A stretch of 64,000 bases of DNA from an uncultured Prolixibacteraceae bacterium (GTDB lineage: Bacteria; Bacteroidota; Bacteroidia; Bacteroidales; FEN-979). Below the pieces are notes generated by a model, which saw only the letters and a list, made by a program, of their open reading frames with translations, made no database searches and was not told the origin of the DNA. Of this stretch, positions 849 to 58,158 are shown piece by piece. The translations under genes were made by a program, and so were the position numbers. The stretch covers positions 1,534 to 65,533 of the forward strand of contig CAZXQU010000006.1 in NCBI GenBank assembly GCA_964642545.1. Direction: 5' to 3'. Within the stretch, counting starts at the first letter, position 1. Every line of letters starts with the position of its first letter.

Positions 849-880
849 CATAATCAACTATTAACTAAGGAGAGACAATT

Positions 881-2374: not shown

Positions 2375-2382
2375 CAGGTGTA

Positions 2383-5624: not shown

Positions 5625-5630
5625 ATCTAT

Positions 5631-8831: not shown

Positions 8832-8850
8832 CGCCACTAAAACTAAAACT

Positions 8851-12488: not shown

Positions 12489-12505
12489 GTCCCCTTCAGG
12501 GGATT
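12468..12505. terminator. 15-bp stem-loop between convergent genes (AATCCCCTGAAGGGG / CCCCTTCAGGGGATT), possible bidirectional terminator
   Basis: Positions 12468-12482 pair perfectly with 12491-12505. The TAA stop (12486-12488) sits in the loop. TTT follows on the plus strand. Confidence 0.6.
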
Positions 12506-12521
12506 TAGGGGCGACTTTACT

Positions 12522-16688: not shown

Positions 16689-16715
16689 GGGATAAAAATT
16701 TTGGTTAGTTGGTTA

Positions 16716-35091: not shown

Positions 35092-36276
35092 ATGAGACAT
35101 TTAAAAAGTTTTCAAGGCAGGCAGCTAATGCTTGGTTTACTTTTATGCCACCTTAATTTGCCACAGTCGCAGATAACCCTCTCCGAAAATTGTGCCATAG
35201 CCGATAGTTGTCAGAATTCGGGTCAAAATGTCAGAATCCTCTTCTGGAATGTCGAAAACCTTTTTGACTATAAGGATGACACACTTACTGCCGACGAAGA
35301 GTTTACCGGCAACGGAGCTATGCATTGGAGTTATACGAAACTTCAGACAAAACTCGCGCATGTAGCCAAAGCCATCCTGGCTGCCGGAGAGTGGGACCCT
35401 CCTGTCATAATAGGCATGTGTGAGATTGAGAACCGATATGTGCTGAATAAACTGATTTACAATTCTCCTCTAAAGTCATCTGGATACCGGATCATTCACC
35501 GCAACTCCCCCGACAGCCGTGGTATCGATGTAGCCATGCTCTACCGTGCAGATGCATTTACCCCAATGTTTACCGAATGGATCACTATCAAATTCCCTTT
35601 CGACACCACTGCTACAACTCGGGATATACTCTATGCCAAAGGGATTCTGTTCGATTCAGATACCATCCATCTATTTGTCAACCACTGGCCATCAAGGCGT
35701 GGAGGAGAGGCGGCTTCTGCGCCGAGAAGGAATTATGTAGCGTCGGTACTGCGTGCGAAAATTGATTCCATTCTGAAAGCAGATACGCATTATACGATGC
35801 GCAATATGCGATACGCGATACACGATCAAAAGATACCTGATGCCAGATCCCTGATGCTGGATACCACATCTCAAATCGCAGATCCTTCACTCCTGATCAT
35901 GGGCGACTTCAACGATGAGCCTGAAAACGAGAGCCTGCAGAATATTCTGAAAGCGCGACTGGATGCAGGAGATCTGAAGCCCGGGGACCTGATTAACATG
36001 ATGCATCTGATGGTAAACAAAGAGGGCAGCCATAAATTCAGGGAACATTGGGGTTTGCTCGACCAGTTTATTGTCTCCGGCTCCCTCCTGGACAAACAAC
36101 ATCCGCTTCAGGTTGATCCCGGCAGTGTCCAGATATTCAAACCAGCTTTTCTTATGGAAGATGACCTGAAGTACCTAGGCACTAAACCCAAACGCACCTA
36201 CCTCGGACCGAGGTATAAGGGAGGGTTTTCGGATCATCTGCCTGTTGTGATGGAAATTAGGAAATTAGGAAATTAG
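35092..36276 (+). CDS. Endonuclease/exonuclease/phosphatase (EEP) family protein
   Basis: FWNVENLFD, MCEIEN, VNHWPSRRGG, GDFNDEP and SDHLPV motifs. The last codons (RKLGN) are encoded by a GGAAATTA array. Confidence 0.85.
   Translation: MRHLKSFQGRQLMLGLLLCHLNLPQSQITLSENCAIADSCQNSGQNVRILFWNVENLFDYKDDTLTADEEFTGNGAMHWSYTKLQTKLAHVAKAILAAGEWDPPVIIGMCEIENRYVLNKLIYNSPLKSSGYRIIHRNSPDSRGIDVAMLYRADAFTPMFTEWITIKFPFDTTATTRDILYAKGILFDSDTIHLFVNHWPSRRGGEAASAPRRNYVASVLRAKIDSILKADTHYTMRNMRYAIHDQKIPDARSLMLDTTSQIADPSLLIMGDFNDEPENESLQNILKARLDAGDLKPGDLINMMHLMVNKEGSHKFREHWGLLDQFIVSGSLLDKQHPLQVDPGSVQIFKPAFLMEDDLKYLGTKPKRTYLGPRYKGGFSDHLPVVMEIRKLGN
35782..35866 (+). repeat. Intragenic in-frame GAT-heptamer element (GATACGC ATTATAC GATGCGC AATATGC GATACGC GATACAC GATCAAAA GATACCT GATGCCA GATCCCT GATGCTG GATACCA)
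   Basis: Read directly. It encodes DTHYTMRNMRYAIHDQKIPDARSLMLDT inside the EEP protein. Confidence 0.8.
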
Positions 36277-36291
36277 GAAATTAGGAAAATA
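36252..36291 (+). repeat. (GGAAATTA)x4 plus GGAAAATA octamer array
   Basis: Read directly. It contains the TAG stop (36274-36276) of the EEP gene. Confidence 0.95.
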
Positions 36292-36314
36292 ATAAATTAA
36301 GGAAGGGGACGAGG

Positions 36315-36677
36315 ATGAAATTGGAAGAGTTGAAGATTTATCAGGTTGCCATGGAGATTGGCGAGGAAATCTGGAGAATAGTCAAGCCACTGGATTATTT
36401 TACAAAAGAAACTATTGGGAAACAAATCGTGAAGTCATCAGACTCAATTGCATCGAATATTAGCGAAGGCTATGGGAGGTTCCATTATCGCGAATCACGT
36501 ATGTTTTATTTTTATGCCAGAGGCTCCGCATTCGAAACCAAAACCTGGATAAAAAAGCTCTACAATCGAAGGAAGCTCAATGAAGAAGAGTATAAAAGAA
36601 TATATAACTTAATTGAATTTGAATGTGCTTCCCTAAACAACTATATAAAAACGGTGGGCCCAAAAGAAGCACATTGA
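36315..36677 (+). CDS. Four-helix-bundle protein (23S rRNA intervening-sequence protein / Avd-like family)
   Basis: 120 aa. Family-typical blocks LKIYQVAMEI, QIVKSSDSIASNISEGYGR, FYARGSAFETKTWI. Confidence 0.8.
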   Translation: MKLEELKIYQVAMEIGEEIWRIVKPLDYFTKETIGKQIVKSSDSIASNISEGYGRFHYRESRMFYFYARGSAFETKTWIKKLYNRRKLNEEEYKRIYNLIEFECASLNNYIKTVGPKEAH

Positions 36678-36695
36678 ATCCTAAGCACCTCCCCT

Positions 36696-36727
36696 TAATT
36701 TCCTATTTTCCTAATTTCCTAACTCCC
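36696..36727 (-). repeat. Octamer array; sense (minus) strand reads GGGAGTTA GGAAATTA GGAAAATA GGAAATTA
   Basis: The plus strand reads TAATTTCC TATTTTCC TAATTTCC TAACTCCC. It abuts the TAG stop of the radical SAM gene and is inverted relative to 36252-36291. Confidence 0.9.
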
Positions 36728-37884
36728 TACCCCCACCTCCCCGCAATCGCATTTCCACAAAACCCACACTTCCCCTCCTTCAGGTTGTTTGTAAGGATCG
36801 TAAACCCCTTTCTTTCCAGGACCACTTTGTTGCATTTCGGACAATAGGTATTTTCGGCTTTGTTGTTTGGGACATTGCCGATGTAGACGTACTTGATGCC
36901 GGCTTTTTTTGCAATATCGTGAGCCTCTTCAAGGATTGCCAGAGGGGTGAACGGTAGATTGGTCAACTGATAGAGGGGGAAGAAGCGGCTAAAATGGAGC
37001 GGACAGTCTTCGAGTCCGTTGTCTACCAGCCATGTACACATCTCTCTGATCATCTCAGGTTTGTCGGTCCAGTTTGGAACAACCAGGTTGGTAATCTCCA
37101 GCCAGACACCCATTTCATGCAATATTTTCAATGTCCTCAGGATCGGCGCAAGATGTCCGCCATTCAGATTCTGATAGATCTCATCGGAAAATGACTTCAG
37201 GTTGATATTGGCGCCATCAATATAGACAGCCATGTCTCTCAACGGTTTTTCATTGATATAACCATTTGATACCAGGACGTTTTTAATCCCTCTCTGTCGG
37301 GCAAGTTTTGCAGAGTCAAACATATACTCATAAAATGCTATCGGTTCGGAATAAGTATATGCGATGGATAGGGCCCCACTGGCAACCGCCTCGTCAACCA
37401 GGACTTCAGGGAAGAGATCGTAGTTTTTGGTCTCACGCGGGCTCACCTGGGAGATCTCCCAGTTCTGGCAATTCAGGCATGCCAGGGTACATCCGGCAAT
37501 GGCCACAGAATATGCCCGCGAAGTAGGATAGAAATGAAAAAGGGGTTTCTTCTCAATCGGATCCACGTGAATGGAGCAGGGATTGCCATAACCAATCGTG
37601 TAAAGCTTCCCGTCCTTGGCAACTTTCGTGCGACAGAGGCTCTCATTCCCCTCGGTGAGGGTGCATTGGTTTGGGCAGATCAGGCACCTCACCCCTTTTG
37701 GGGTCACAATGCTATAGGGTGACTCTTTGCTGAACCGCCCCAATCCGCCATCCGGAATTCCTGTTTCACTATTCATACCTGTTATGTTTGCCAACGACTC
37801 CATTGAATTCAACCCAATAGCTGCTCCTCCTGCACCCAGAAGGCTCCGGCGAAGAAATTCCCGTTTGGATATCTTATGGCTCAT
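36727..37884 (-). CDS. AmmeMemoRadiSam system radical SAM enzyme with twin-arginine-like N-terminus
   Basis: CX3CX2C (GCTLACLNCQNW). N-terminal Cys cluster (CLICPNQC). C-terminal CPKC...CGFC. N-terminus MSHKISKREFLRRSLLGAGGAAIG. The longest ORF starts at 37917. Confidence 0.85.
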   Translation of the reverse strand: MSHKISKREFLRRSLLGAGGAAIGLNSMESLANITGMNSETGIPDGGLGRFSKESPYSIVTPKGVRCLICPNQCTLTEGNESLCRTKVAKDGKLYTIGYGNPCSIHVDPIEKKPLFHFYPTSRAYSVAIAGCTLACLNCQNWEISQVSPRETKNYDLFPEVLVDEAVASGALSIAYTYSEPIAFYEYMFDSAKLARQRGIKNVLVSNGYINEKPLRDMAVYIDGANINLKSFSDEIYQNLNGGHLAPILRTLKILHEMGVWLEITNLVVPNWTDKPEMIREMCTWLVDNGLEDCPLHFSRFFPLYQLTNLPFTPLAILEEAHDIAKKAGIKYVYIGNVPNNKAENTYCPKCNKVVLERKGFTILTNNLKEGKCGFCGNAIAGRWG

Positions 37885-37981
37885 GATGATCTCATCAAAG
37901 TTACTAAAAAAATCCAAAGAATTGGGCTAAAGCCCAGTAATACACAACTTCCCATTGCCTCCCTAACACATGCAATGACAA

Positions 37982-38044
37982 TAATTTCCTAATTTCCTAA
38001 TTTCTCACCTCCAGGCTCCCTGACCTCCTGACTTCCTGACTCTT
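37982..38044 (-). repeat. Composite array; sense strand reads AAGAGTCA GGAAGTCA GGAGGTCA ... AGAAATTA GGAAATTA GGAAATTA
   Basis: The plus strand reads TAATTTCC TAATTTCC TAATTTCT ... TGACCTCC TGACTTCC TGACTCTT. It starts 3 nt after the stop of 38047..40176. Confidence 0.9.
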
Positions 38045-38046
38045 TC

Positions 38047-40176
38047 TCACCTCCTCCCTGTCGCAAAGTACCAAAGCGCTGTAACTGTATTCAATATCGC
38101 CAACATCACGAGTGTCATCTTGATCCCCATCAGGGGAAGCAGGACTATGGTAGTAAGGAGAGCGCCGAGGGCTGAGCCGTAGAGATCGATGGCGTAGTTA
38201 GAGGCTGCTACTTTATCTATTCCTCCTTTTGAGATGAGGGCCGCAAAAGAAAATACAAGTCCGGTGAGAAAAGAGATTCCGAGCACAAAAAAGATAAAGG
38301 CAGCAAAAATAATGGCATCCGGGAGTTCAAGAAAGGGAACAAGTGAGATGAACAAAAGGATCAGGATGACAAATCCTGCCATCAATAACTGAATGAGCAG
38401 GTAACTCCTGGGATGGATGGATTTGAAAAGGATTTTCCGGAAGGCGGCGCCAAGAGCCAGACCCAGCATAAAAACCATTATCAGGACTCCCAGTGCCTGG
38501 TATACATAACCAAATATGACCTGAAATCCCAGCAGGAGGATGATCTCGGTAGATGATGCCGTAAATCCGGCAGCAAATACCCCTGCATTGACACGATCGG
38601 CCACCAGAAAAGAAAAGACAAGAAGCATCAGGATCATCCCGCCGATAAGGGTATAATTTTGCCGGAAATAGCTGAGCCAGTATGCCTGCTGGTAAAAGTA
38701 GGCAACAGGGTGGAAATCATAGTTTATCCCGCTCTCCTCCATGAGTTTTCCCATCACAAACTGACTGCGGTCTTTCAGTAACTGTTCATCAAAATAGTAT
38801 GGATTGACATAATCAGTTTGGATTCCCCTTTGAATAATCATGGAAGGAATTGCCAGGCTCAGGGAATCATCAGAGGCCAGGAAGTAGTTTTGACTGGATG
38901 GCAGAATGACCACATGCCGAAAATGGTTCTTCAGGGTAAAGTAAATCGAGGAGTTTAGTTTACCAGCTTCATCGCTCACATAATCTGATCCGGTAGACAT
39001 TGAAAGAGCCAGAATACCACCGGAATCCATCTTGTTGCTAATCGCATCAAAAAACTCATCGGTATAATAGCGGTTCAACTGGAGGGTGGAAGGTTCAGGC
39101 AGGTTTATCAGTACCACATCGTAGAGGCTGTCACAATGTGTAATGTACCTCCTGGCATCTGCCGTGATATACCTGACAGCAGAATCGGCTACCTGTTCTC
39201 CCAATGTTGATGTTATTTCAATCAATGCCGGGTTGAGTTCCACATAATCAACCCTGATGGGGTGATATTTCAGAATTTCGGGGATGGCGCCGCTCAATCC
39301 CCCTGAAACGAGCAACACCCGCCCCGGATTGTCATGCTGCACCATTGCAAAATGGACCGACTCCTCATCCCGGATCACATTTCCCGAACTGAAAAGCAGA
39401 ACTCCATTCTCATAAACATTGTGCTGTCCGCTCTGATGCGTAACGATTACCCTGCCGTAGGGAGTCTCCCTATCGACAACCACCTCCTGTTCCTCGAAAA
39501 GCAGAGAGAGGCTGAAAGATGTAAAGGATACCGAATAGAGGCCCAGCAGAACGCCTCCTGCGATAAGCGGGACCATGATCTTCGGGATCAGCGTTGGCTG
39601 TGAGAAGGCATAGAGAATGACACTTCCAAGGAAGACAGCAGAAATGATATTCATCGCCGGAAATGAGCCTATCGTCCAAAGGAAAACGAAATTGATCAAC
39701 CCTCCTGCTACCAAACTGCCCAGCGACTCCACCGCATATGCACCCCCCAGCGGATTTTGCCCCGGTTTTCGTGGAAGAATCGCTGTTAGTGCAGTAAACA
39801 GGAAACCACTCAGGAAACAAACAGGTGTTTGAAGCAACAACGATGAGTAAAAAATCTCCCGTAGCCCCACCATGCTTCCTGTTGGAAAGACAACACACCG
39901 CCATATATCCAGCTTCACAATAGTGAGAACAGGGATTACGGCAAGCAGTATCATCAGGAAGAGGAAAAAAGATTCCCGGTCTTTTATCTGCTGAGCAAAC
40001 CGTCCTATAAAAGCGCCAAACCCACTGATCAGCATCCACGTAGTAAGAACAATGCCGAAAACAAGCTCATTGCCCTGGAAAACGTAAAGGAACTCGCGCA
40101 GCAGGTAAATCTGAGTAGCAATAGAGATAAATCCCAGGCCAAACAAGGCAGAGAAGATTGCAAATCTCTTGTACAT
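38047..40176 (-). CDS. Fused polytopic membrane domain / spermidine synthase-like protein
   Basis: N- and C-terminal blocks of TM helices flank a class I methyltransferase/aminopropyltransferase-like core (VLLVSGGLSGAIPEILKY..VDYVELNPALIE..YDVVLINLPEPST). Confidence 0.8.
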   Translation of the reverse strand: MYKRFAIFSALFGLGFISIATQIYLLREFLYVFQGNELVFGIVLTTWMLISGFGAFIGRFAQQIKDRESFFLFLMILLAVIPVLTIVKLDIWRCVVFPTGSMVGLREIFYSSLLLQTPVCFLSGFLFTALTAILPRKPGQNPLGGAYAVESLGSLVAGGLINFVFLWTIGSFPAMNIISAVFLGSVILYAFSQPTLIPKIMVPLIAGGVLLGLYSVSFTSFSLSLLFEEQEVVVDRETPYGRVIVTHQSGQHNVYENGVLLFSSGNVIRDEESVHFAMVQHDNPGRVLLVSGGLSGAIPEILKYHPIRVDYVELNPALIEITSTLGEQVADSAVRYITADARRYITHCDSLYDVVLINLPEPSTLQLNRYYTDEFFDAISNKMDSGGILALSMSTGSDYVSDEAGKLNSSIYFTLKNHFRHVVILPSSQNYFLASDDSLSLAIPSMIIQRGIQTDYVNPYYFDEQLLKDRSQFVMGKLMEESGINYDFHPVAYFYQQAYWLSYFRQNYTLIGGMILMLLVFSFLVADRVNAGVFAAGFTASSTEIILLLGFQVIFGYVYQALGVLIMVFMLGLALGAAFRKILFKSIHPRSYLLIQLLMAGFVILILLFISLVPFLELPDAIIFAAFIFFVLGISFLTGLVFSFAALISKGGIDKVAASNYAIDLYGSALGALLTTIVLLPLMGIKMTLVMLAILNTVTALWYFATGRR

Positions 40177-40209
40177 TTTGTACCTTTACTTTGTTTTATT
40201 TCAAAAATA

Positions 40210-44599: not shown

Positions 44600-44622
44600 T
44601 TGGTTTTATTTACGAATAATTC

Positions 44623-44693
44623 GATTTCCGATTTGGGATTTGAGATTTGAGACTTGGATATTATTTGTTATTTGTGATTTGTTATTTGATTAT
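44623..44693 (+). repeat. Heptamer arrays (GATTTCC GATTTGG GATTTGA GATTTGA GACTTGG) then (TTGTTAT TTGTGAT TTGTTAT)
   Basis: Read directly. It overlaps the last codons and stop of 44682..45386. On that gene's sense strand it is CA-rich, the opposite polarity to most arrays. Confidence 0.85.
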
Positions 44694-45386
44694 TGACCTA
44701 TCTGTATATTTCCCAATGTCTCTCCACTCCAGCGAGTTATCCATGTATCCCTTGATAAGATGATCTGATGCGAGTCTGATGTATAAATCTGTAAGCGAGA
44801 ATCTTCCTGTTTCAATCATCAATGAAAAGATTTCTGGCTGAAGAATTTGTATGCCGCTGAATGCGAGAGGATGCAACTCCTCACACTTCATGCTTATCCT
44901 CTTTTCACCGCTCTTTTTGTTTTCCCATCCGCAAAGCCTGTTCTTGTCATTAAACAGAAAATAACGAGAAGTTTCACGAGTACGGACTGCGAGTGTAGCA
45001 AGGGGCTTAACGAGTGCATGAGCCCTGGCCATCAGGCTGAGATCAAGATCGGAAAGGATATCTGCATTTCTAACGAGAAACGGCTTACCATCATCAAAAA
45101 ACCAGGAAGCCTTTTTCAGTCCACCGCCTGTCTCCAGCAACTCCTCTGATTCGTCGGAGATTGTAATGGACAAACCAAAATTATCATTCGCCCTGAGAAA
45201 ATCCCGAATCTGCGCAGGGAAGTGGTGTACATTGATGATGACATCCCGTATCCCGTATCGCTTAACGTGTTCCAGCGTATACTGCAGCAATGGTTTTCCC
45301 TCCACCACCACAAGTGCTTTGGGGATTGAATTTGTGATTGGCCGCAACCGCGTACCCAATCCCGCTGCAAGTATCATCGCTTTCAT
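44682..45386 (-). CDS. Sugar-1-phosphate nucleotidyltransferase, MurU-like
   Basis: N-terminus MILAAGLGTRLRPIT plus an NTP_transferase fold. Adjacent to an AmgK-like kinase gene. Confidence 0.8.
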   Translation of the reverse strand: MKAMILAAGLGTRLRPITNSIPKALVVVEGKPLLQYTLEHVKRYGIRDVIINVHHFPAQIRDFLRANDNFGLSITISDESEELLETGGGLKKASWFFDDGKPFLVRNADILSDLDLSLMARAHALVKPLATLAVRTRETSRYFLFNDKNRLCGWENKKSGEKRISMKCEELHPLAFSGIQILQPEIFSLMIETGRFSLTDLYIRLASDHLIKGYMDNSLEWRDIGKYTDRSIIK

Positions 45387-45388
45387 TT

Positions 45389-45474
45389 GTTCGCTGTTCG
45401 CTTTCCTAATTTCCTAATTTCTTAATTTCCCACATCCCTACTCTCATACTCTCATACCCTCAACCCTCTTACCC
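45389..45474 (-). repeat. Composite array filling the spacer; sense strand has GGTAAGAG GGTTGAGG (GTATGAGA)x2 ... (GGAAATTA-type)x3 ... (GCGAACA)x2
   Basis: The plus strand reads TGTTCGC TGTTCGC TTTCCTAA TTTCCTAA TTTCTTAA TTTCCCAC ATCCCTAC TCTCATAC TCTCATAC CCTCAACC CTCTTACC. Confidence 0.9.
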
Positions 45475-45476
45475 AT

Positions 45477-46964
<1,488 letters not shown>

Positions 46965-46972
46965 TCTACTTC

Positions 46973-47009
46973 CCTAATTTCCTAATTTCCTAATTTCGAA
47001 TTTCCTACC
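46973..47009 (-). repeat. Octamer array; sense strand reads GGTAGG AAATTCG AAATTAGG AAATTAGG AAATTAGG
   Basis: The plus strand reads CCTAATTT x3, then CGAATTT CCTACC. It abuts the TGA stop of 47010..50213. Confidence 0.9.
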
Positions 47010-50213: not shown

Positions 50214-50524
50214 CCATCGACGAAAGAACTACGTGGCCAATGGGTTGAAAAATAAAACATCCCGGGAAACTCAAAACCAAAAGAGGAGGACGAGTCCCAG
50301 CTACCATTTGTATCCACCCGCTGGTTCATTGCCTCCAGCATCGAAAAATCCCATATAAAATTGCTTCCTGTTACAGCGTAATTAACAGGAACGACACTTG
50401 TCATGCTTACCCGAAGTGTATCTCCAGGACCGGGCATGTCAGATTGATCGATAGAGATCTGCGAAAAGAGCACAAGTGGGAGACAAAGCAGGAGACAACG
50501 GAGAGTAAAGATACTGGGTTTCAT
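50189..50524 (-). CDS. Hypothetical small secreted protein (possibly a truncated remnant)
   Basis: Signal peptide (LLLCLPLVLFSQ). 111 aa. Its 3' end overlaps the helicase start by 25 nt. No family recognised. Confidence 0.35.
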   Translation of the reverse strand: MKPSIFTLRCLLLCLPLVLFSQISIDQSDMPGPGDTLRVSMTSVVPVNYAVTGSNFIWDFSMLEAMNQRVDTNGSWDSSSSFGFEFPGMFYFSTHWPRSSFVDGWMKIFNT

Positions 50525-50543
50525 GATTTTCTGGTTTCTGGTA

Positions 50544-50609
50544 GGTTTTTGGTTATTGAGTTATTGGTTTTTGGTTATTGGTTATTGGTTATTGAGTTAT
50601 TGGGATATT
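50544..50609 (+). repeat. Heptamer/octamer array (GGTTTTT GGTTATT GAGTTATT GGTTTTT GGTTATT x3 GAGTTATT GGGATATT)
   Basis: Read directly, just after the tamB stop (50615). On the tamB sense strand it is CA-rich (AATAACC). Confidence 0.9.
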
Positions 50610-50614
50610 GGGCT

Positions 50615-53600
50615 TTATTTGTCAGTTGGAGTTTGTTTCTTGGTGTTTGATTTTTTGATCAGCTCCCTCCACGTGTAGAAATCGCGCTGGTAGGAAATAC
50701 CAACACCTTGTGTGTAAGGAGCGTTATTATTAAGCAGATCGATTGTATTGGTTCGGTTAAACGCCCGGATCCGCCATCGCCTGTTTTTGGTCAGGATGTA
50801 TTCAATATTGATATCGCCAACGATCGTACTAGCCTGGGCGGAAGTTGTATTCTTATAAGATGACATCCCAAAGGTACCATCAATCAGCAATCGGTCATCA
50901 AACAACTGCGTTGATACCGTCATGTCAATGTCCTGACTGGTTGTAGATGATCCTGGGTTATAGTTAACACCAATGTTCAAATTTTGTGTCATTCCCGAAA
51001 GCCAGCTATTGATCTGGTTCGTCACGATAGAAAGAGAAGTGCTACTTACATCCACCGACCCTCCAGCGCCACCTGCAACTGGTTTAAATTGGTTCATTAC
51101 CAGGATGTACAACACCTGTTGTGTCATCTCAGCCGTATTGTTGGTATCTATGGCATTAAACACCAGGTTACGTTCATTTGCCTGGGCATTTGGTAATTCC
51201 AATCCGAACGACATAACCGGATTCATCAGCTTCCCGTTGAGGCGGATGATGCACTCAACAGGAATCCTCCCCTGAACTGATGAGGTCTCTGAGCTAAGTC
51301 CTGTCAAGGGCACTTTTGTTTTATAGATGGCAGATAATGATATCGTTGCATTGGTGGGATCACCTGTCCACGAAATTGAACTCCCCTCTTTGATGGCAAA
51401 CGGTAACCGGATCAGGTTTTTCATCTGGAAGAGAAAAGACCCCTTATAGATATAATAGCTTCCAAAAAGGTTAAAAGGGGTGGTTGGAGTCATTCCCATG
51501 CTGAGATTTCCGGTACCCGTTGCTTTGATATTACCCAGTTGATCCGGGAAGAGCACCTCTACCTGGGCATCGGATTTTACATCAAGGCTTAAAGCCAGTG
51601 TCAGACCCGTTGAAGGATGTATTCGTGACGAACCTTTTACCTCCTCCAAAGAATCCTGAACAGATTGTTTAAAAACAATGTAATCTACCTGTCCTACACC
51701 CTGTGTAAGGCTAATTGGTATGGTTACATGGGTATTATTACCCGTGCTTGCCACTACATCCACAACGATGTTATCCAATGGCCCAGTGATACTCACCTTT
51801 CCGCTTGCTCTGGCATTGCCAAAAAATGTTGAATTCTGTGCATAGGTGTTCTTGAAGGCAGAAAAATCGTCCATGCTGATCGCCAGATTCAGTCGTATGT
51901 CCTTGAAATAATTATGATCGATGGAGCCGTTCAAGTATGCTTTGTTTCCAAGAGAGTCATACAGTACGATATTGTCGAAATCAAACTTGTCAGGTTTAAT
52001 CTGAATGACTTCCGAAAGGGAATAAGGTACATTGAGATAATTGATCTTGAATTCGGTACGCATCAGATTCAATTCTCCTTGCAACGAGGGTTCATTTAAC
52101 GTTCCGGTGATCTTTACCTCCCCGGAAGCCAATCCGGTAAGTTTGGACATGAAGCTTGCAACAAAAGGTTGCAGCATCTTGAGATTTAAATTCTTCAGCT
52201 TCAGGTCGAGATCAAAATGGGCCTCTGGTTTGTTGGTAAAAATACTGCCTTGTAATGAGAATGGGATATTCTGGCCTATATTGCCGGTATATATTATCTC
52301 TGAAAGCACATCAAATTTCCCTTCTGTCTGGTTGTAATTTACCTGAAAAACAGCATCTCCAAGGTGTTGCTTGTTGAAGATGAAATTGTCAAGTTTAAGA
52401 TCTGAATAAATCGAAAGTTCATTGTAAATATCCGTAATCTTCAGACTCCCCGACAAAATGCCGTCAACATCAACATTGGGATTAGACAACAAATAATCAA
52501 GTTGAGAAACATCCACCCCATTGAATTCAAGATCAAGGGTATCCACTTCATGATGGGTAACCCGTCCATTCAAGGAGAGCATTTGATTTCCGCTCGTAAA
52601 GGAGAGATCATGGAATTCCATCAGGGCTGTATCGAGGATCACATAATTTTCTTTTGAAATAGACCAGGAATTTCCGGCTAATTTCAGGTCAAGATCATCC
52701 AATTTAATTTTCACGCTTCCCTCTTCCTGGAATGTGAGAAATCCTTGTAAATAGCTGTAATCCTCCCCTGAATCAGAGCTTACCTTATAGAGGATGCTGT
52801 CATGGCGAATGCTGGAAGTGAGTAAAAGCATGTCAAGTTGAACATATACTGTATCTGTAGGCCTTGACTTATTCATGATCAGCTGGTCACACCCTGTTTG
52901 CAGGGAGAGATCGTCGGTGTGCGCCTCGGCATCGACAAACCAATTCTCCAGATCCATTCCACGAATATGAAGTACGTCGGATCGGCCGGTAAGTGAGAGT
53001 AGTTTCTTATCCTCGTTGTAATTTCCTTCCAGAAATGCTCCCGGGGAAATCTCCAAAAATGGGAGAAAAATGGCTGTGATATCAGCTGTTTTCTTGAACT
53101 CAACACGATAATTCAGCTTCTGTCCTGAATGGTGATATTTTCTGGTTGAGTCGCTCCGCATCTCAAAGCTGGCCATGTATTTCTGGATAAATGTTATTAC
53201 AGAAGGTACCAGCTTACTGAATTCAAACTCACCCGTAAAATCAGCATCAAGAAGATCGGATCTTACCTCATATACTGTCTTTCCAGAAGAGTCAGAAATA
53301 GTCCTTAAAAGCAGGGAATCGATCACTGCGCGGTTCCTTCCTTCCCAATAAGAGATGTCGTGCAAATTTAATGTCCCATCTGCATTATCGATAGTATTTC
53401 CGCTGAAATCAGCCTCAATGAAAGCTGAGAATATCTCGATCGAGTCCCGCTCCAGTAGATGTAAGTTGAAAAGCTGTGCATGAGCAATCCGTGCGTCGAA
53501 ATTAAAGATAGGTAAGGAATCACTAACATTTGCCATTCCGTGGAAAGTGAATTGCAAGTTGGGATCATCCACAGTAACATCTCCGAAGAACTTTTTCCTG

Positions 53601-55051
53601 ATCAGAGAGCCATTGACGGCGATATTTTTATAATTATACCCATTAAGTGCGGCAGAGTCGATATGCCCCTGCATCAGCAGGTCAGCGTTGTCGAATGAAA
53701 TACCCTGTCCATCCAGGTTAGCCCGCAGGGTGACCTTTCCAAAAAGTTCTGTGTCCTCAATCAGTATGCCCAAATTAAACGCGGTGATACTTAGTTCACC
53801 TTTGTAAGCCAGAGGGCCTCCTTTGGTTGGTTGCTTCAACTGAAGGTTTGTTGCTGCGGTTCCGATATCTGTATGAAATTCAGCCCGGGAAATAAAGTCA
53901 TCCATGAAACCCGTAAATTCACCATGGATATTGATTAAGCCAAGATTCGTTATGATTGATGGGATTGGCAAGGTATCAGGATCCCCTGGAATCCTGAATG
54001 AACGTATATCTTGGGCAGTTGACGTAAAATTATTGATTTTCATGTCAACATAAGTGGCCATGACATTGGGCAACCCAACAGCCTTAATATCTCCGTCGAA
54101 GAGGGTATTCTCGCCAAAACCAATTCGTAAGTTATGCGCATTGAACTTACTGACCGTACCTGCGATATCTCCCTCGAGATTGAAACGGTTGGTCATTTTT
54201 TTTACCTCAGGGGCAAAGAATCCGATATCGGTCATGTCAAACTCGGAGGGTTGGATATCAGCCTCAATCCTCACGAGTTTCAGGAAATCTGTAAAAGCGA
54301 CGAAGCCGTTGTACCGGAAAGCAAAATCAAGCTCAAGATTTGAGTTGTCGGTAACCAGTTTCAGCTTCTCCACCTCAATAAACTGGTCACAAACCCTGCA
54401 GTCGCCCTGAAAATCATGCAGATTAATTCCACTTCGTTCCTTTGCCGACAAACTGTTGATTGTCGCACACATTGTGTCACCTTCAATTCTGACGCCAGAG
54501 ATATCGAGGTTGATATTATCCACATCAATATTCGCGTAATCCATCCCTTCAGGTGCTGCAGGCTTGGTTTCATCCTGGTAGTGAAAACGGATTCCTTTCA
54601 GTTCGACATGATTGCAGATAATTGTAAATGGGGTTGTTGGCGCAGTGTCTGGCGGTTTTGGTATCGTGTCTTTGGATGCAAAATAATTGATTATATACTG
54701 AAGATTGAGGATGGAGTCTCCCTGATGCTTCAACAGCTGGAACTCTCCCTCACTGATCATAATCTTTTGCACCATGATATTTCTGCCGGACAGACTGAAC
54801 CAGATTGGCTTGACTCCAAGGATCTGTGCAGCAAATAGGGTTGTATCCAGATTGTCCTTCACCAGGATATCTTCAATGACCAGTCCGTTGTTGAAAGAGA
54901 TGTCGAATTTTCCAATACGAATTTCCGTACCAATTTCTTTTGTAAGATAATCAGCAGCCAGTTTAGCTGAAAGGCTTTGGACCCATGTATCGCGCAATAC
55001 AAGAGTTACAGTCATGATCAGTGAGATCAGGACCGTTAACAGATAGGCCAA
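50615..55051 (-). CDS. tamB: Translocation and assembly module protein TamB
   Basis: 1478 aa, N-terminal TM anchor, long beta-rich body, and a C-terminal DUF490-like end (DINIEYILTKNRRWRIRAFNR). Apparent TTG start. Confidence 0.85.
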   Translation of the reverse strand: MAYLLTVLISLIMTVTLVLRDTWVQSLSAKLAADYLTKEIGTEIRIGKFDISFNNGLVIEDILVKDNLDTTLFAAQILGVKPIWFSLSGRNIMVQKIMISEGEFQLLKHQGDSILNLQYIINYFASKDTIPKPPDTAPTTPFTIICNHVELKGIRFHYQDETKPAAPEGMDYANIDVDNINLDISGVRIEGDTMCATINSLSAKERSGINLHDFQGDCRVCDQFIEVEKLKLVTDNSNLELDFAFRYNGFVAFTDFLKLVRIEADIQPSEFDMTDIGFFAPEVKKMTNRFNLEGDIAGTVSKFNAHNLRIGFGENTLFDGDIKAVGLPNVMATYVDMKINNFTSTAQDIRSFRIPGDPDTLPIPSIITNLGLINIHGEFTGFMDDFISRAEFHTDIGTAATNLQLKQPTKGGPLAYKGELSITAFNLGILIEDTELFGKVTLRANLDGQGISFDNADLLMQGHIDSAALNGYNYKNIAVNGSLIRKKFFGDVTVDDPNLQFTFHGMANVSDSLPIFNFDARIAHAQLFNLHLLERDSIEIFSAFIEADFSGNTIDNADGTLNLHDISYWEGRNRAVIDSLLLRTISDSSGKTVYEVRSDLLDADFTGEFEFSKLVPSVITFIQKYMASFEMRSDSTRKYHHSGQKLNYRVEFKKTADITAIFLPFLEISPGAFLEGNYNEDKKLLSLTGRSDVLHIRGMDLENWFVDAEAHTDDLSLQTGCDQLIMNKSRPTDTVYVQLDMLLLTSSIRHDSILYKVSSDSGEDYSYLQGFLTFQEEGSVKIKLDDLDLKLAGNSWSISKENYVILDTALMEFHDLSFTSGNQMLSLNGRVTHHEVDTLDLEFNGVDVSQLDYLLSNPNVDVDGILSGSLKITDIYNELSIYSDLKLDNFIFNKQHLGDAVFQVNYNQTEGKFDVLSEIIYTGNIGQNIPFSLQGSIFTNKPEAHFDLDLKLKNLNLKMLQPFVASFMSKLTGLASGEVKITGTLNEPSLQGELNLMRTEFKINYLNVPYSLSEVIQIKPDKFDFDNIVLYDSLGNKAYLNGSIDHNYFKDIRLNLAISMDDFSAFKNTYAQNSTFFGNARASGKVSITGPLDNIVVDVVASTGNNTHVTIPISLTQGVGQVDYIVFKQSVQDSLEEVKGSSRIHPSTGLTLALSLDVKSDAQVEVLFPDQLGNIKATGTGNLSMGMTPTTPFNLFGSYYIYKGSFLFQMKNLIRLPFAIKEGSSISWTGDPTNATISLSAIYKTKVPLTGLSSETSSVQGRIPVECIIRLNGKLMNPVMSFGLELPNAQANERNLVFNAIDTNNTAEMTQQVLYILVMNQFKPVAGGAGGSVDVSSTSLSIVTNQINSWLSGMTQNLNIGVNYNPGSSTTSQDIDMTVSTQLFDDRLLIDGTFGMSSYKNTTSAQASTIVGDINIEYILTKNRRWRIRAFNRTNTIDLLNNNAPYTQGVGISYQRDFYTWRELIKKSNTKKQTPTDK

Positions 55052-55074
55052 TATTTTTCCTGCTGTTTTTATCT

Positions 55075-55082
55075 TATTTTTG
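55075..55082 (+). promoter_or_regulatory. Candidate Bacteroidota -7 box (TATTTTTG) for tsaD
   Basis: It fits TAnnTTTG and lies 27 nt upstream of the tsaD ATG. Confidence 0.35.
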
Positions 55083-55108
55083 CTTTTTGCAAACTGATCT
55101 TACTATTT

Positions 55109-56182
55109 ATGTCCCTGCCCTTTATCCTAGGTATTGAATCCTCTTGTGATGACACTTCTGCATCTGTGGTGGAAGGCACCATCGTTCGATCAAATGTGAC
55201 TGCCACCCAGGATATCCACAGGAAATTTGGGGGAGTAGTCCCGGAGCTGGCATCCCGTGCTCATCAGCAAAATATCATACCCGTAATTGAAGCCGCAATC
55301 CAACAAGCAAATATAGATAAAAATCAGCTTGCTGCAGTGGCTTTTACACAGGGTCCGGGGCTACTTGGATCGTTGCTTGTAGGATCATCTTTTGCAAAGA
55401 GTTTTGCCCTCGGAATGGGCATCCCACTCATCGAGATTGACCATATGCAAGCCCATATCCTGGCACACTTTCTGGAAGATCTTGAAAAGCCACGCCCCAT
55501 CCCAGAATTTCCTTTCCTCTGCCTGACTGTCTCAGGTGGACATACACAGATCGTCCTGGTTAAGGACTACTTCGAAATGGAGGTTTTAGGGCAAACGATT
55601 GATGATGCGGCCGGGGAGGCGTTTGATAAAACCGCCAAGATCCTTGGGCTTCCTTATCCAGGAGGGCCAGTTATTGATAAACTTGCAGCTAAAGGTTATC
55701 CCTCCCGTTTTTCATTCGCCCGTCCCAATATCCCGGGCCTTGATTACAGCTTCAGTGGTCTCAAAACTTCAATTCTCTATTTCATTCGGGATGAGCTGAG
55801 AAAGGATCCAGAATTTATTGAGAAAAACAGGAATGACCTTTGCGCTTCGATCCAGACAACGATTGTAGAGATCTTAATGTCGAAGTTAAAGTTGGCAGTT
55901 CAAGCGATACGCGATACACGATACGCGATATACAATGACCAGATGCCTGATCCCGGATCACAAACCATTGATGTTGCAATCGCCGGCGGGGTTTCGGCCA
56001 ACTCGGCTCTGCGTAAAGCGCTTCTGGAGGCAGCGGCTTCGGAGGGTTGGCGTGCCTTTATCCCTCCATTTGAATATACAACCGATAATGCCGCAATGAT
56101 TGCTGTAGCTGGGTATTTCAAGTTTATTAAGGGTGAATTTGCCCTTCAATCAACAACATCTTATGCAAGGAGCAGATGGTGA
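55109..56182 (+). CDS. tsaD: tRNA N6-adenosine threonylcarbamoyltransferase TsaD
   Basis: ILGIESSCDDT, GGVVPELASRAH, SGGHTQ, DDAAGEAFDKTAKILGLPYPGGP, AGGVSAN and TDNAAMIA motifs. It is about 19 aa longer than typical because of a repeat insertion. Confidence 0.95.
   Translation: MSLPFILGIESSCDDTSASVVEGTIVRSNVTATQDIHRKFGGVVPELASRAHQQNIIPVIEAAIQQANIDKNQLAAVAFTQGPGLLGSLLVGSSFAKSFALGMGIPLIEIDHMQAHILAHFLEDLEKPRPIPEFPFLCLTVSGGHTQIVLVKDYFEMEVLGQTIDDAAGEAFDKTAKILGLPYPGGPVIDKLAAKGYPSRFSFARPNIPGLDYSFSGLKTSILYFIRDELRKDPEFIEKNRNDLCASIQTTIVEILMSKLKLAVQAIRDTRYAIYNDQMPDPGSQTIDVAIAGGVSANSALRKALLEAAASEGWRAFIPPFEYTTDNAAMIAVAGYFKFIKGEFALQSTTSYARSRW
55906..55962 (+). repeat. Intragenic in-frame GAT-heptamer element (GATACGC GATACAC GATACGC GATATAC AATGACCA GATGCCT GATCCCG GATCACA)
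   Basis: 57 nt. It encodes IRDTRYAIYNDQMPDPGSQ immediately before the conserved AIAGGVSAN strand of TsaD. Confidence 0.9.
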
Positions 56183-56232
56183 GAACGAAGGACGAGGGAA
56201 GAGGGAATAGGGAATAGGGAGTAAGGAAGTTA
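56183..56232 (+). repeat. Heptamer array (AACGAAG GACGAGG GAAGAGG GAATAGG GAATAGG GAGTAAG GAAGTTAG)
   Basis: It starts directly after the tsaD TGA stop. It contains four GGG tracts with 4-nt loops (56195-56218). Confidence 0.9.
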
Positions 56233-56285
56233 GAAAATTATCATATCAAAAATTAGTTTATCTTTGATGTAATAAAATATCCTTT

Positions 56286-56972
56286 ATGAGAAATCGCATC
56301 TTCACATCCATTCTTTTCTTAGCCGGTATCATGCTGGCAATGACGGGCTGTAAGAAAGATCAATCCCTGGATCAGAATATTCCCACTGACGAACAAATCA
56401 CGATCCTGATTGATCAATCGTGGAACAGGATGGCATCAGAAGGACTTTTCCCTGAAAATCCTTCTCTTGGAATCGAGATGCTGAACGAGGGAATTGCCCC
56501 TGATTTCCTGCTGGATGAAACCTATTTTGAGGATGCCCCACCAGCAACTGAGACAAATCATGCCAACTGGTATTCCATCCGGGATCATTCGTTCATCCAA
56601 TGCCTGCGTGGCATCCAGCTCTCTGAAGAGCAAACTGCAGGAGTTCGTCATAATATCAGAGAGTATGCATCATGTAAAGAAGATGCGCTTCAGCGAGCCC
56701 GTAGCATTTACCGCGAACTTAGAGCTGAGTATCATCAACGTTTTCAGAGGTTAGTCAATGCGTACAGGAATGGCACGCTTACCGAAAGGGAATTCCATCA
56801 GAAAGTAGCCGAACTCAGGAGTGATTTCCGCAATGAGCTACGTCAGTTACATCTTCGCGAAAGTTTGGACGACGCTTTCAAAAATTGTCTTCGAGTATGT
56901 ATGCGTGAACTTCATGGAATACTGACCGAGAGGCACTGGAATGCGTTTGTGGAATGCTATCGGGGTTTGTAA
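56286..56972 (+). CDS. Hypothetical lipoprotein
   Basis: Lipobox LAMTGCKKD. Helical, charged C-terminal half. No family recognised. Confidence 0.6.
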   Translation: MRNRIFTSILFLAGIMLAMTGCKKDQSLDQNIPTDEQITILIDQSWNRMASEGLFPENPSLGIEMLNEGIAPDFLLDETYFEDAPPATETNHANWYSIRDHSFIQCLRGIQLSEEQTAGVRHNIREYASCKEDALQRARSIYRELRAEYHQRFQRLVNAYRNGTLTEREFHQKVAELRSDFRNELRQLHLRESLDDAFKNCLRVCMRELHGILTERHWNAFVECYRGL

Positions 56973-56984
56973 ACCATAATTCTC

Positions 56985-57671
56985 TTGACCTTCATCAACA
57001 TTCCCACCGAACAAACAACAGCAGTTACAGATGTTCTGCTAGCATTGGTCGCCGCCTCTGTTTGCTTACTCACACTGAAAGCCGGGGCCATAAACAACGC
57101 AAAAAAAGGCAAGATATGGGGCTGGGCTTTCGGATTGCTCGCTTTTGCAGCGCTAACAGGAGCTATAGCACACGGGTTCCAGATGTCAAAGGAACTCAAT
57201 TACATCCTGTGGCAACCGTTGAACCTGGCTCTCGGACTTACCGTCTCGTTGTTTGTTGTGGGTGTCATCTTAGATTTAACCACTGGTTCCCTGCCAAAGT
57301 ACCTCCTCCCGCTGATGATCAGTATCGGGACCTTGTTCTATCTGGTCACCCTATTTTTCCCTGGCTCCTTCCTGGTTTTCATTCTATACGAAGCCGTTGC
57401 AATGTTGTTTTCACTGGTGGTTTATATAGTTCTTTCAACCCGGCATCGCTTGCAAGGGGCATCCCTTATGGCAGCCGGGATCCTGATCACCATCATTGCG
57501 GCAGGCATCCAGGCTAGTGAGGCAGTTCACTTCCAGTGCATCTGGGAGTTCGACCACAATGGAATATTTCACCTCGTCCAGATTATCGGTTTACTGGTTT
57601 TATATGCAGGACTTAGGTTGGACCTCAGGGACGAAAGACGAGGGATGAAAGACGAAGGACGTAAAACGTAA
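56985..57671 (+). CDS. Hypothetical polytopic membrane protein
   Basis: About 7 hydrophobic helices. TTG start. The C-terminal tail DLRDERRGMKDEGRKT is encoded by a heptamer array. Confidence 0.6.
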   Translation: MTFINIPTEQTTAVTDVLLALVAASVCLLTLKAGAINNAKKGKIWGWAFGLLAFAALTGAIAHGFQMSKELNYILWQPLNLALGLTVSLFVVGVILDLTTGSLPKYLLPLMISIGTLFYLVTLFFPGSFLVFILYEAVAMLFSLVVYIVLSTRHRLQGASLMAAGILITIIAAGIQASEAVHFQCIWEFDHNGIFHLVQIIGLLVLYAGLRLDLRDERRGMKDEGRKT

Positions 57672-57727
57672 GAGGTGAGACGTGAGAGGTGAGACGTGGG
57701 AAGTGGAATGTGGGATGTGATATTTGG
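57630..57727 (+). repeat. 14-unit heptamer array (GACGAAA GACGAGG GATGAAA GACGAAG GACGTAA AACGTAA GAGGTGA GACGTGA GAGGTGA GACGTGG GAAGTGG AATGTGG GATGTGA TATTTGG)
   Basis: Read directly. It spans the last 14 codons (13 sense codons plus the TAA stop) of 56985..57671 and the convergent spacer beyond. Confidence 0.9.
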
Positions 57728-57738
57728 AAGTTCTTTCA

Positions 57739-58002
57739 TTATATCGTTTTTTCACTGTCTGCGTGACAGCGGCACTCCGCATAGCTCCGTTTCTTTGCTT
57801 TTTCCATTGCTTCCATACCCTCTTTCACTGAGAACCAAATCAGGCCTGCAGCGCCAATGGCATCTATGTAGGCAAAACCAAATAGAGCAAGAGTTTCATC
57901 CGAATAACCCAGCGTTATGGAGATAATTCCCTCCACAAGGTTATATAGAATGGTAAAAAGCGCAAGGTAAAAAGCAAATCGGAACAGTTTTTTAATGCGC
58001 AT
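57739..58002 (-). CDS. Hypothetical small membrane protein (87 aa), possibly a gene remnant
   Basis: Two hydrophobic segments, no recognisable family. It is bracketed by inverted copies of GTGAGACGTGAGA. Confidence 0.3.
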   Translation of the reverse strand: MRIKKLFRFAFYLALFTILYNLVEGIISITLGYSDETLALFGFAYIDAIGAAGLIWFSVKEGMEAMEKAKKRSYAECRCHADSEKTI

Positions 58003-58008
58003 AATTTT

Positions 58009-58064
58009 CAGTCAGCAATCAACAGTCAGCAGTCAAGATTCTCACGTCTCACGTTTCAGGTTTA
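58009..58064 (+). repeat. Heptamer array (CAGTCAG CAATCAA CAGTCAG CAGTCAA GATTCTC ACGTCTC ACGTTTC AGGTTTA)
   Basis: Read directly. The ACGTCTC units are the reverse complement of the GAGACGT units at 57672-57699. Confidence 0.85.
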
Positions 58065-58074
58065 CCACATTAGG

Positions 58075-58094
58075 CACAATAGTTCACAATAGTT
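58075..58094 (+). repeat. Direct 10-nt duplication (CACAATAGTT)x2
   Basis: Read directly. Confidence 0.8.
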
Positions 58095-58126
58095 CTACTG
58101 TGTCCTATGTGCCAGTTGTGGTAACT

Positions 58127-58158
58127 TTCCTAATTTCCTAATTTCCTAATTTCCTAAT
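58127..58158 (-). repeat. Octamer array; plus strand (TTCCTAAT)x4, sense strand (ATTAGGAA)x4
   Basis: It abuts the TAG stop (58159-58161) of the esterase gene. Confidence 0.95.

Follow-up and report, generated by a model that had tools for sequence, protein, structure and literature searches.

Octamer tandem arrays in the gene spacers of an uncultured Prolixibacteraceae genome: orientation, change in place and association with an intervening-sequence-like cassette

Six tandem arrays of the octamer GGAAATTA lie in a 64,000-nucleotide stretch of an uncultured Prolixibacteraceae genome (GenBank assembly GCA_964642545.1, contig CAZXQU010000006.1, positions 1,534 to 65,533; hereafter the window), each at or near a stop codon and each in the same orientation relative to the gene that ends there. 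The question is what places and orients them. A first-pass annotation of the window took the uniform orientation to argue for a strand-specific, RNA-level or transcription-coupled role, or for a directional insertion mechanism. The explanation that we favor, with a probability of about 0.55 for the whole, is that the arrays are one family among the 7-8-nt repeats, similar to the short tandemly repeated repetitive (STRR) sequences, that inflate the transcribed spacers of this lineage. Slippage in transcribed spacers would expand and contract them one unit per step, and two filters would act on the products. Open reading frames (ORFs) would exclude the arrays, as three units close all six frames, and a constraint on the transcript strand would favor sense RNA that is A-rich and free of structure. 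The second filter may reflect that selection in Bacteroidia, where initiation does not depend on Shine-Dalgarno sequences, favors leaders that are A-rich and unstructured, or that the local sequence was skewed before it was amplified. The arrays would then be at most neutral to mildly useful linkers between cistrons, rich in stops and free of structure. The arrays at 36252 and 36696 would owe their orientation to a separate cause, a cassette that resembles an intervening sequence (IVS). A dedicated terminator or a directional-insertion mechanism is unlikely.

Position of the arrays and their change in place

The window was searched for GGAAATTAGGAAATTA, two units of GGAAATTA, with up to two mismatches, and 19 matches were found where shuffled sequence predicted 0.07. 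Tandem Repeats Finder reported period-8 arrays of 3-6.5 copies at all six sites of the first-pass annotation (Table 1). The single orientation was confirmed as well. At all six sites GGAAATTA reads on the sense strand of the gene whose stop codon the array contains, abuts or follows, which is the plus strand at 36252 and the minus strand at the other five. The names given earlier to these genes agreed with Pfam, which identified EEP, radical SAM, a spermidine-synthase-like protein of 709 aa, an APH kinase with a RapZ C-domain, a UvrD/PD-(D/E)XK AddA-like protein and an Abhydrolase_3 esterase. The array sequences are identical across independent JGI, ENA and Logan assemblies and are therefore not assembly artefacts. 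Short-read contigs of other samples end within arrays, indicating that the repeats break assemblies: the start of L162 corresponds to position 36262, the end of L161 to 45467 and the end of L160 to 45889, and L170 also ends in an array (L-numbers are labels of the compared contigs).

All GGAAATTA loci are in spacers, where the octamer is stacked with arrays of GTATGAGA, GCGAACA and AGTCAGG, and at every locus the array block begins 0-5 nt from the stop codon. The EEP stop TAG (36274-36276) is inside the 36252 array, which encodes the last eight EEP codons, MEIRKLGN. The 37982 array is upstream of a weak hairpin (37923-37936) and of the TAACTTTG -7 box (37896-37903) of the radical-SAM gene. The array at 45403 is 43-46 nt past the kinase/RapZ_C stop, with another array between, and the next start codon follows 17 nt on; the 90-nt spacer that holds it, between the kinase and an NTP-transferase gene, reads (GAGGGTAT/GTATGAGA)n-(GGAAATTA)3.6-(GCGAACA)2-ATG in the sense direction and contains four C in total. 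At 46973 the array lies 0-2 nt past the AddA-like stop and 8 nt ahead of the kinase ATG. The source genome could be followed over about 80 kb, that is, the 64-kb window and 10 kb past each end, and an additional sense GGAAATTA array was found 10 kb past the window end (L177 6060-6088). It stands between two minus-strand genes, from the MscL stop to the DUF3078 start, and its last unit provides the DUF3078 start codon. Three or more units of GGAAATTA close all six reading frames, and for this reason the arrays start at or next to a stop codon and persist only outside ORFs. Five of the six window arrays are in co-directional spacers, 8-125 nt upstream of the next start codon, so that a position after a stop and a position before a start are inseparable at these five.

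Relatives of the window were compared, the closest named ones being Bacteroidales and Bacteroidota metagenome-assembled genomes (MAGs). Over 20 kb, near-identical strains (99.9-100%) show one indel only, an 8-nt unit (CTCATACC) of the TACTCTCA/TACCCTCA octamer array that adjoins 45403 (window position 45450 versus L159). The comparison set was completed by seven further relatives with conserved gene order, whose kinase is 66-80% identical to that of the window. For the array at the EEP stop, three of the relatives give unit counts of 3, 4.5 and about 12, and this array and the one at the radical-SAM stop are kept, at 3 to about 12 units, in all relatives that cover the region. The AddA/kinase spacer contains GGAAATTA x3.5 in the window, GGAAAGTA x3 in L165, GAAATAC x3.7 in L170, TCATGCCC x2 in L168 and other units in L173, while L174 has a 9-nt spacer without an array. 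In the kinase/NTP-transferase spacer the order of a GAGGGTAT-type array, GGAAATTA, GCGAACA and ATG is kept, with 1.5-3.5 units of GGAAATTA and 2-12 of GCGAACA; L173 has no spacer here, and its kinase and NTP-transferase genes overlap. Spacers that bear arrays in the window are reduced to 9 nt, 3 nt or an overlap in L174, L173 and L172, with no array, and in L165 a hairpin replaces the arrays after the spermidine-synthase-like gene.

Judged from these alignments, the arrays expand, contract by one unit, drift in unit and vanish in place, and such in-place change fits slipped-strand mispairing, not insertion and not an indispensable element. One operon thus offers an unusually clean comparative series of eight relatives, in which arrays are retained or missing, have expanded or have switched unit, and the series points to in-place slippage together with a strong transcript-strand constraint. 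Alignment of 70 nt on each side revealed no flank similarity among the six loci. Only the array itself is common, so the loci are not copies of a mobile element, and a miniature inverted-repeat transposable element or transposon with conserved flanks or body was rejected. The directional insertion mechanism suggested by the first-pass annotation could not be upheld, because there are no common flanks and orthologous spacers expand in place from 1.5 to 12 units. Between the spermidine-synthase-like and radical-SAM genes, where the window holds arrays, two relatives have inserted fragments of an MmeI/TaqI-type restriction-modification gene (L172 8799-10821 and L173 18764-21383).

Orientation, RNA structure and termination

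Orientation tracks the genes and not the chromosome strand, as the arrays at 36252 (+) and 36696 (-) are opposite and only 400 nt apart. A replication-strand bias was rejected on the same ground. Over the 80 kb of the source genome, the GGAAATTA arrays are sense in seven of seven cases, the array outside the window included. Composition was tallied for the source genome's co-directional spacers, which contain 19 arrays of 6-9-nt units, 18 of them with unequal A and T. The sense strand has more A than T in 16 and more T than A in two (p=0.001); with GGAAATTA left out the counts are 10 and two, and in the arrays of the relatives they are 20 and three. The AT skew of coding strands overall is just +0.03. 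The orientation rule is general to the 7-8-nt arrays of the lineage and not special to GGAAATTA, which points to a constraint at the level of the transcript.

It was considered whether the solo GGAAATTA arrays share one orientation by chance, in a sample that covers little of the genome. There are just 5-6 independent solo arrays, since 36252 and 36696 are the arms of the cassette described below and count as one event, and the one-sided probability of the pattern is about 0.02-0.03. Among species-representative genomes, 78 stretches of exact (GGAAATTA)3 were found. The carriers are mostly Bacteroidota (Saprospiraceae, Capnocytophaga, Prevotella, Flavobacterium), with one Verrucomicrobiales MAG and some Patescibacteria. 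In co-directional spacers of these other genomes the array is sense in 22 cases and antisense in 17, and a further 7 are convergent and 13 divergent; a MAG related to the window (L063) has an antisense copy between a gene with a type IX secretion system tail and mnmA. The strong form of the orientation claim therefore fails across genomes and may hold within the source genome. However, the array found out of sample is again sense, and the unrelated array families of the source genome obey the same A-over-T rule in 10 of 12 cases. We consider a sampling accident quite improbable.

The census revealed a second polarity. Of the two flanking ORFs, the one 5' of the GGAAATTA strand is the nearer in 44 of 59 cases (median 16 versus 77 nt), whichever way that ORF is oriented; genes in this census were called simply as longest ORFs, so that distances to start codons are approximate. 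No GGAAATTA array was present in 772 kb from 80 other Bacteroidota metagenome contigs that carry the orthologous kinase gene, showing that the family is limited to certain lineages.

The arrays of the window belong to two composition classes. The G-rich, C-free class (GGAAATTA, GTATGAGA, AGGTAGTG and others), in which G exceeds C, lies nearer to the upstream stop (median 2 nt) than to the next start (median 32 nt), and the A/C-rich, G-free class (AATAACC, TCAAATC, TAACCAA, ACTAAA) lies directly ahead of start codons. Each lacks one partner of the G-C pair. Array RNA was predicted to fold at about 0 kcal/mol, and array spacers extended by 20 nt into the next ORF at energies between 0 and -8 kcal/mol, as compared with -11 to -23 kcal/mol for random genomic windows of equal length, at most 1% of which are less stable than the array spacers. 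The sense strand of GGAAATTA arrays is A-rich, T-poor and without C, as in almost every array of the lineage, and the RNA between the cistrons is predicted to be almost structure-free. For A/C-rich arrays, sense and antisense RNA fold at 0 versus -9.7 and at -2.2 versus -18.6 kcal/mol. RNA structure was nevertheless rejected as the cause of the GGAAATTA orientation, as sense and antisense GGAAATTA spacers are equally unstructured. Initiation in Bacteroidia is reported to be adjusted by the structure of the mRNA and by nucleotides upstream instead of Shine-Dalgarno sequences (PMC6847099, PMC7797042). Such initiation is a plausible reason why unstructured sequence between cistrons is tolerated or favored. 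A Shine-Dalgarno-like role of the GGA in the repeat was set aside, given that Bacteroidia ribosomes ignore this signal (PMC6847099, PMC7797042).

A role at transcript ends was also evaluated, in which the arrays would be strand-specific 3'-end elements that end or stabilize transcripts or act through Rho. The close and uniform spacing of array blocks to stop codons, and the medians of the G-rich class, are in its favor. Among the window's four non-overlapping convergent spacers, three hold arrays alone, without a hairpin, and L165 has a hairpin downstream of the spermidine-synthase-like gene where arrays would otherwise lie. Moreover, GGGAATC repeats likewise favor the coding strand downstream of genes, 0-50 bp from the stop (PMC4692102). 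However, no array contains a hairpin or U-tract or scores as an intrinsic terminator, and the sole hairpin nearby (37923-37936) lies apart from the array. Neither sigma-70 promoters nor Bacteroidetes -7 boxes were found inside the arrays. In the EEP/IVP (38 nt), AddA/kinase (45 nt), kinase/NTP-transferase (90 nt) and MscL/DUF3078 (about 29 nt) spacers the arrays continue right up to the next start and the Bacteroidetes TAnnTTTG -7 motif is absent. Efficient terminators in these array-filled, promoterless spacers would leave the downstream genes silent. Two longer spacers, spermidine-synthase-like/radical-SAM and TsaD/next gene, have the order stop, arrays, -7 box and start codon, with the weak hairpin between the arrays and the -7 box in the first; here the arrays are the 3' untranslated part of the upstream unit, which is compatible with a 3'-end element.

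In the Rho version of this idea, the G-rich, C-free sense RNA would be invisible to Rho, while antisense RNA entering the gene, C-rich and G-free, would be rut-like. In a rut composition test the sense strand of the arrays (0 C, 25% G) failed and the antisense strand alone was rut-like, in agreement with this version for the G-rich class. Nevertheless, C-rich, G-free arrays (AATAACC, TCAAATC, CAACAAT) are also sense inside operons, contrary to an avoidance of Rho. With the absence of arrays from the same sites in relatives, a 3'-end element of either kind appears unlikely. The termination or 3'-end role raised by the first-pass annotation is thus not borne out. Its broader proposal of a strand-specific RNA-level or transcription-coupled role survives as the A-over-T constraint on the sense strand and was lost as regards a terminator and generality across genomes.

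Other known mechanisms were examined. There was no Rfam match at the gathering threshold in the whole window, rRNA included, and a known RNA family was rejected. A stable quadruplex is not expected from GGAAATTA, whose sequence has GG runs only, and a G-quadruplex was set aside for these arrays; the neighboring GGGACGA and GGGAATA repeats have a G3N4 periodicity. Stops in all frames and the position after the stop codon exclude phase variation by frame switching. The spacing to the next start is 8-23 nt at three loci.

The IVP cassette

The inverted arrays at 36252 and 36696 bracket a gene of the 23S_rRNA_IVP family, the 23S rRNA intervening-sequence proteins (IVP). The arms are 89-91% complementary over 32-37 nt and 390-412 nt apart. 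Complementarity reaches past the arrays, and the arms pair in both the minimum free energy and the centroid folds of the plus-strand RNA (z=-2.8). They change jointly in relatives: L165, L008 and L062 have GGAAATTA in both arms, like the window, L174 has a 9-mer version and L170 has GAAATAC(G) on both sides, with an IVP that is 61% identical as opposed to 87-88% for its neighbors. As in an IVS, an IVP ORF lies within pairing inverted repeats; the location, between the EEP and radical-SAM genes, is not that of an IVS in 23S rRNA. On sequence grounds, 36252 and 36696 are the complementary arms of an IVS-like cassette with the IVP gene in the loop of a predicted long stem. The first-pass annotation had used the convergent locus at 36696 to argue that a leader role does not account for all loci. 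This argument no longer applies, as the array is the 3' arm of the cassette and the cassette sets its orientation. With a purine-rich arm at the 5' end and convergent outer genes, both arms are automatically sense for the outer neighbors.

Inverted arrays around IVP genes are not confined to the window. With a fixed threshold for a flanking-inverted-repeat score, 7 of 12 independent IVP loci passed, compared with 10 of 541 control genes, and the IVP gene had the top score in the window (54 versus 27 for the next gene). A Saprospiraceae IVP gene (L025 6600-7090) is preceded by (GGAAATTA)11 and followed by an inverted, degenerate copy, another Bacteroidota IVP gene (L119 14020-14650) is bracketed by GTTCTCA and GAGAACY arrays, and inverted 7-8-nt arrays are visible at nine of ten IVP relatives from IMG/VR (L180-L188). 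The unit varies from locus to locus. The purine-rich arm is 5' in the window clade and the IMG/VR loci and 3' in L119. No description of array-bracketed IVP genes outside rRNA was found in the searchable literature. A second cassette of this build was observed in the window, with an 87-aa hydrophobic ORF (57739-58002, minus strand) between inverted CGTGAGA-type arrays (57658-57698 and 58040-58063). Its arms are 24 nt long and 83% complementary, the purine-rich one lying 5' of the ORF, and the ORF had no Pfam match.

These elements suggest that the solo arrays could be relics or landing sites of mobile IVS-like cassettes that have tandem arrays as terminal inverted repeats. The window has two such cassettes, the architecture is widespread, and solo arrays and arms have a common unit. 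However, the IVP cassette is at the same site in every relative sampled, with no presence/absence polymorphism seen, the solo arrays lack common flanks, there is no transposase, and 76 of the 78 GGAAATTA loci in other genomes have no IVP gene nearby. This origin is considered very improbable.

Alternatively, the arrays might be periodic RNA or DNA binding sites of a unit-specific trans-acting protein, the IVP being a candidate, and serve in post-transcriptional regulation of the flanking genes. One unit recurs at seven loci in the 80 kb, and arms and solo arrays share a unit family in each of several genomes (GGAAATTA in the window, GGAAATTA/GGAAAGTA in L165, GAAATAC in L170). The divergence of the L170 IVP relative to its neighbors, the locus-specific units that bracket the IVP at the 7 of 12 loci, and the conservation of two sites over a long evolutionary distance also speak in its favor. 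On the other hand, arrays are gained and lost freely elsewhere and their units drift, L174 combines GGAAATTA-type arms with a GAAATACG solo array, and the dozens of units per genome would demand many factors. Furthermore, the IVP of L025, which has GGAAATTA arms, looks no closer to the window IVP than that of L170, a comparison made by eye without alignment. Such a factor seems doubtful. An equally tentative view is that the arrays and the cassettes of the IVP, an Avd-like four-helix bundle, form one system, in which IVP genes outside rRNA would keep the stem-plus-ORF build of an IVS with tandem repeats as arms, and the solo arrays would be further putative IVP-binding sites or products of homogenization driven by the arms.

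The explanation by slippage and a transcript-strand constraint has several observations against it. In-place slippage leaves the identical octamer at seven dispersed loci unexplained. The arrays at the EEP and radical-SAM stops persist in relatives whose kinase has diverged to 66-80% identity, which is long for a neutral microsatellite. The polarity toward the ORF on the 5' side is not accounted for, the structure predicted for GGAAATTA is about equal in sense and antisense, and the within-genome tally has the 80 kb as its whole basis. In L170, moreover, the AddA/kinase array and both IVP arms are all GAAATAC(G) and not GGAAATTA. This sharing of a unit amounts to at most two independent events and is a lead only, and the GAAATACG solo array of L174 breaks the pattern. 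The unit at seven loci and the case of L170 keep alive, as leads, a unit-specific trans factor, possibly the IVP, or homogenization between loci.

Other arrays in the window and known repeat families

The GGAAATTA arrays are part of a larger population. Of the 75 Tandem Repeats Finder rows in the window, 44 have a period of 7 or 8 and 16 more a multiple of these. There are dozens of different units, several of them at more than one locus, and arrays of differing units are stacked end to end, often forming the whole spacer. Features are collected in Table 1.

Table 1. Coordinates of the repeat arrays and of the IVP gene in the window, with the period-8 spans returned by Tandem Repeats Finder (TRF).
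Feature	Coordinates	Strand	TRF span	Remark
GGAAATTA array, about 6.5 units, terminal ones degenerate	36252-36304	+	36252-36304	5' arm of inverted pair; ends 10 nt ahead of IVP start
23S_rRNA_IVP / TIGR02436 four-helix-bundle gene, 120 aa	36315-36677	+		PF05635 E=2.8e-24; NCBIfam TIGR02436 E=1.4e-24
GGAAATTA array, about 3.5 units	36693-36729	-	36696-36729	abuts radical-SAM stop 36727-36729; 3' arm on + strand
Solo GGAAATTA array, 3 units	37982-38005	-	37982-38004	41 nt past stop of 709-aa spermidine-synthase-like gene
AGTCAGG(A/G) octamer array, sense strand	38007-38041	-		occupies gap between stop at 38047 and GGAAATTA array
GCGAACA array, sense strand	45388-45402	-		neighbor of 45403 array
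Solo GGAAATTA array, about 3.6 units	45402-45434	-	45402-45430	in 90-nt kinase/NTP-transferase spacer
GAGGGTAT/GTATGAGA array, sense strand	45439-45474	-		neighbor of 45403 array
Solo GGAAATTA array, about 3.5-4.5 units	46973-47009	-	46973-47007	nearly entire 45-nt AddA-like/kinase spacer
Degenerate copy GGAAGTTAGAAAATTA	56225-56240	+		sense; 43 nt past TsaD stop, end of purine-rich array block
Solo GGAAATTA array, about 4 units	58126-58162	-	58126-58158	abuts esterase stop; 123 nt upstream of 87-aa ORF
A/C-rich, G-free array, sense strand	50544-50612			
A/C-rich, G-free array, sense strand	44630-44694			
A/C-rich, G-free array, sense strand	16689-16715			
A/C-rich, G-free array, sense strand	8836-8851			
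In-ORF array	35782-35865			EEP
In-ORF array	45860-45929			kinase linker
In-ORF array	11841-11922			
In-ORF array	55904-55930			TsaD
In-ORF array	61336-61607			ParC/GyrA-like tail

Some ORFs also contain in-frame heptamer arrays, which are translated into loops, linkers and tails of low complexity such as (DEGRGTR)n and SRIPYPV x2. In the EEP loop and the kinase linker, the arrays of relatives at equal protein positions have wholly different units. The NTP-transferase ORF contains a GATACGG x2.4 stretch (45243-45264) that is conserved in L170 and L174; 600 nt away, the linker array of the kinase gene (GGGATAC, 45864-45898) is its inverted complement. A hairpin element, GTCCCCTTCAGGGGATTTAGGGG, is present in a convergent spacer at 12462-12511 and, as a near-identical copy, at an unrelated site in L174, the Lact/NTP spacer; it could represent a terminator or a palindromic element with dispersed copies. 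Apart from the repeats, the window contains a complete chemotaxis-type cluster (327-6896, extending upstream in L175) of CheW, CheR, MCP, CheA-like, CheB and a hybrid kinase, which we did not expect in a Bacteroidales genome.

The arrays are an octamer addition to the known dispersed, oriented short tandem repeats, namely STRR, TAACTGA and GGGAATC. The cyanobacterial STRR heptamers, described by Mazel and colleagues in 1990, reportedly occur head-to-tail at dispersed intergenic loci, in several families and with variable copy number. The window arrays are alike in having a tandem unit, at least 2-3 head-to-tail copies, many intergenic loci without common flanks, a mixture of several unit families and copy numbers that change by whole units. 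They differ in the 8-nt unit, with heptamer families coexisting in the genome, in the uncultured Bacteroidales host and in that three units close all six frames. A literature search returned no paper with the exact GGAAATTA repeat.

TAACTGA heptamer repeats are found in Beggiatoaceae, cyanobacteria and five Bacteroidetes, and were proposed to be protein-binding sites (MacGregor 2015, PMC4679880). Like the window arrays, they form intergenic sets (of 2-6 or more copies) that are oriented with the genes, carry stops on the forward strand and briefly overlap ORF ends; whole units are inserted or deleted between strains, other heptamers are intermixed in Bacteroidetes, and few canonical ribosome-binding sites occur nearby (PMC4679880). 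However, TAACTGA sets lie one to a few nt upstream of starts, whereas GGAAATTA blocks begin at the upstream stop, the units differ in sequence and length, and no link to IVP cassettes is reported there (PMC4679880). Among G-rich heptamer repeats, GGGAATC in Xanthomonas and GGGGA(T/C)T in Nostoc have been described (Rehm et al. 2015, PMC4692102). Both are similarly mostly intergenic and nearer to the ORF 5' of the G-rich strand (28 versus 160 nt) for any ORF orientation, a polarity comparable to that in the GGAAATTA census. Most downstream copies are likewise on the coding strand and close to the stop or overlapping it, inverted pairs are frequent in convergent spacers, and coding and non-coding copies are about equal in co-directional ones (PMC4692102). 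In contrast to the GG of GGAAATTA, their GGG/GGGG tracts form G-quadruplexes in vitro (PMC4692102).

The cassette can be compared with the 23S rRNA IVS of Coxiella burnetii (Warrier et al. 2016, PMC4990558). RNase III cleaves this element of 428-444 nt, which contains an S23p ORF and whose terminal stem spans 28 bp. Both have an IVP-family ORF in the loop of an element of about 430-480 nt. Unlike that IVS, the cassette lies between protein-coding genes and not in helix 45 or 25 of 23S rRNA, and its arms are tandem 8-mers.

In practical terms, the arrays break short-read assemblies and create apparent gene fusions and variable protein linkers, and annotators of such genomes should expect them. 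To our knowledge, the oriented, dispersed hepta- and octamer repeats of cyanobacteria, Beggiatoaceae and Xanthomonas have no accepted origin or function. What appears to be new here is the link of inverted tandem arrays to IVS-like cassettes with IVP-family genes. If arrays and IVP were indeed one system, a large orphan family of proteins would gain a function, and the origin of STRR-like repeats would be explained.

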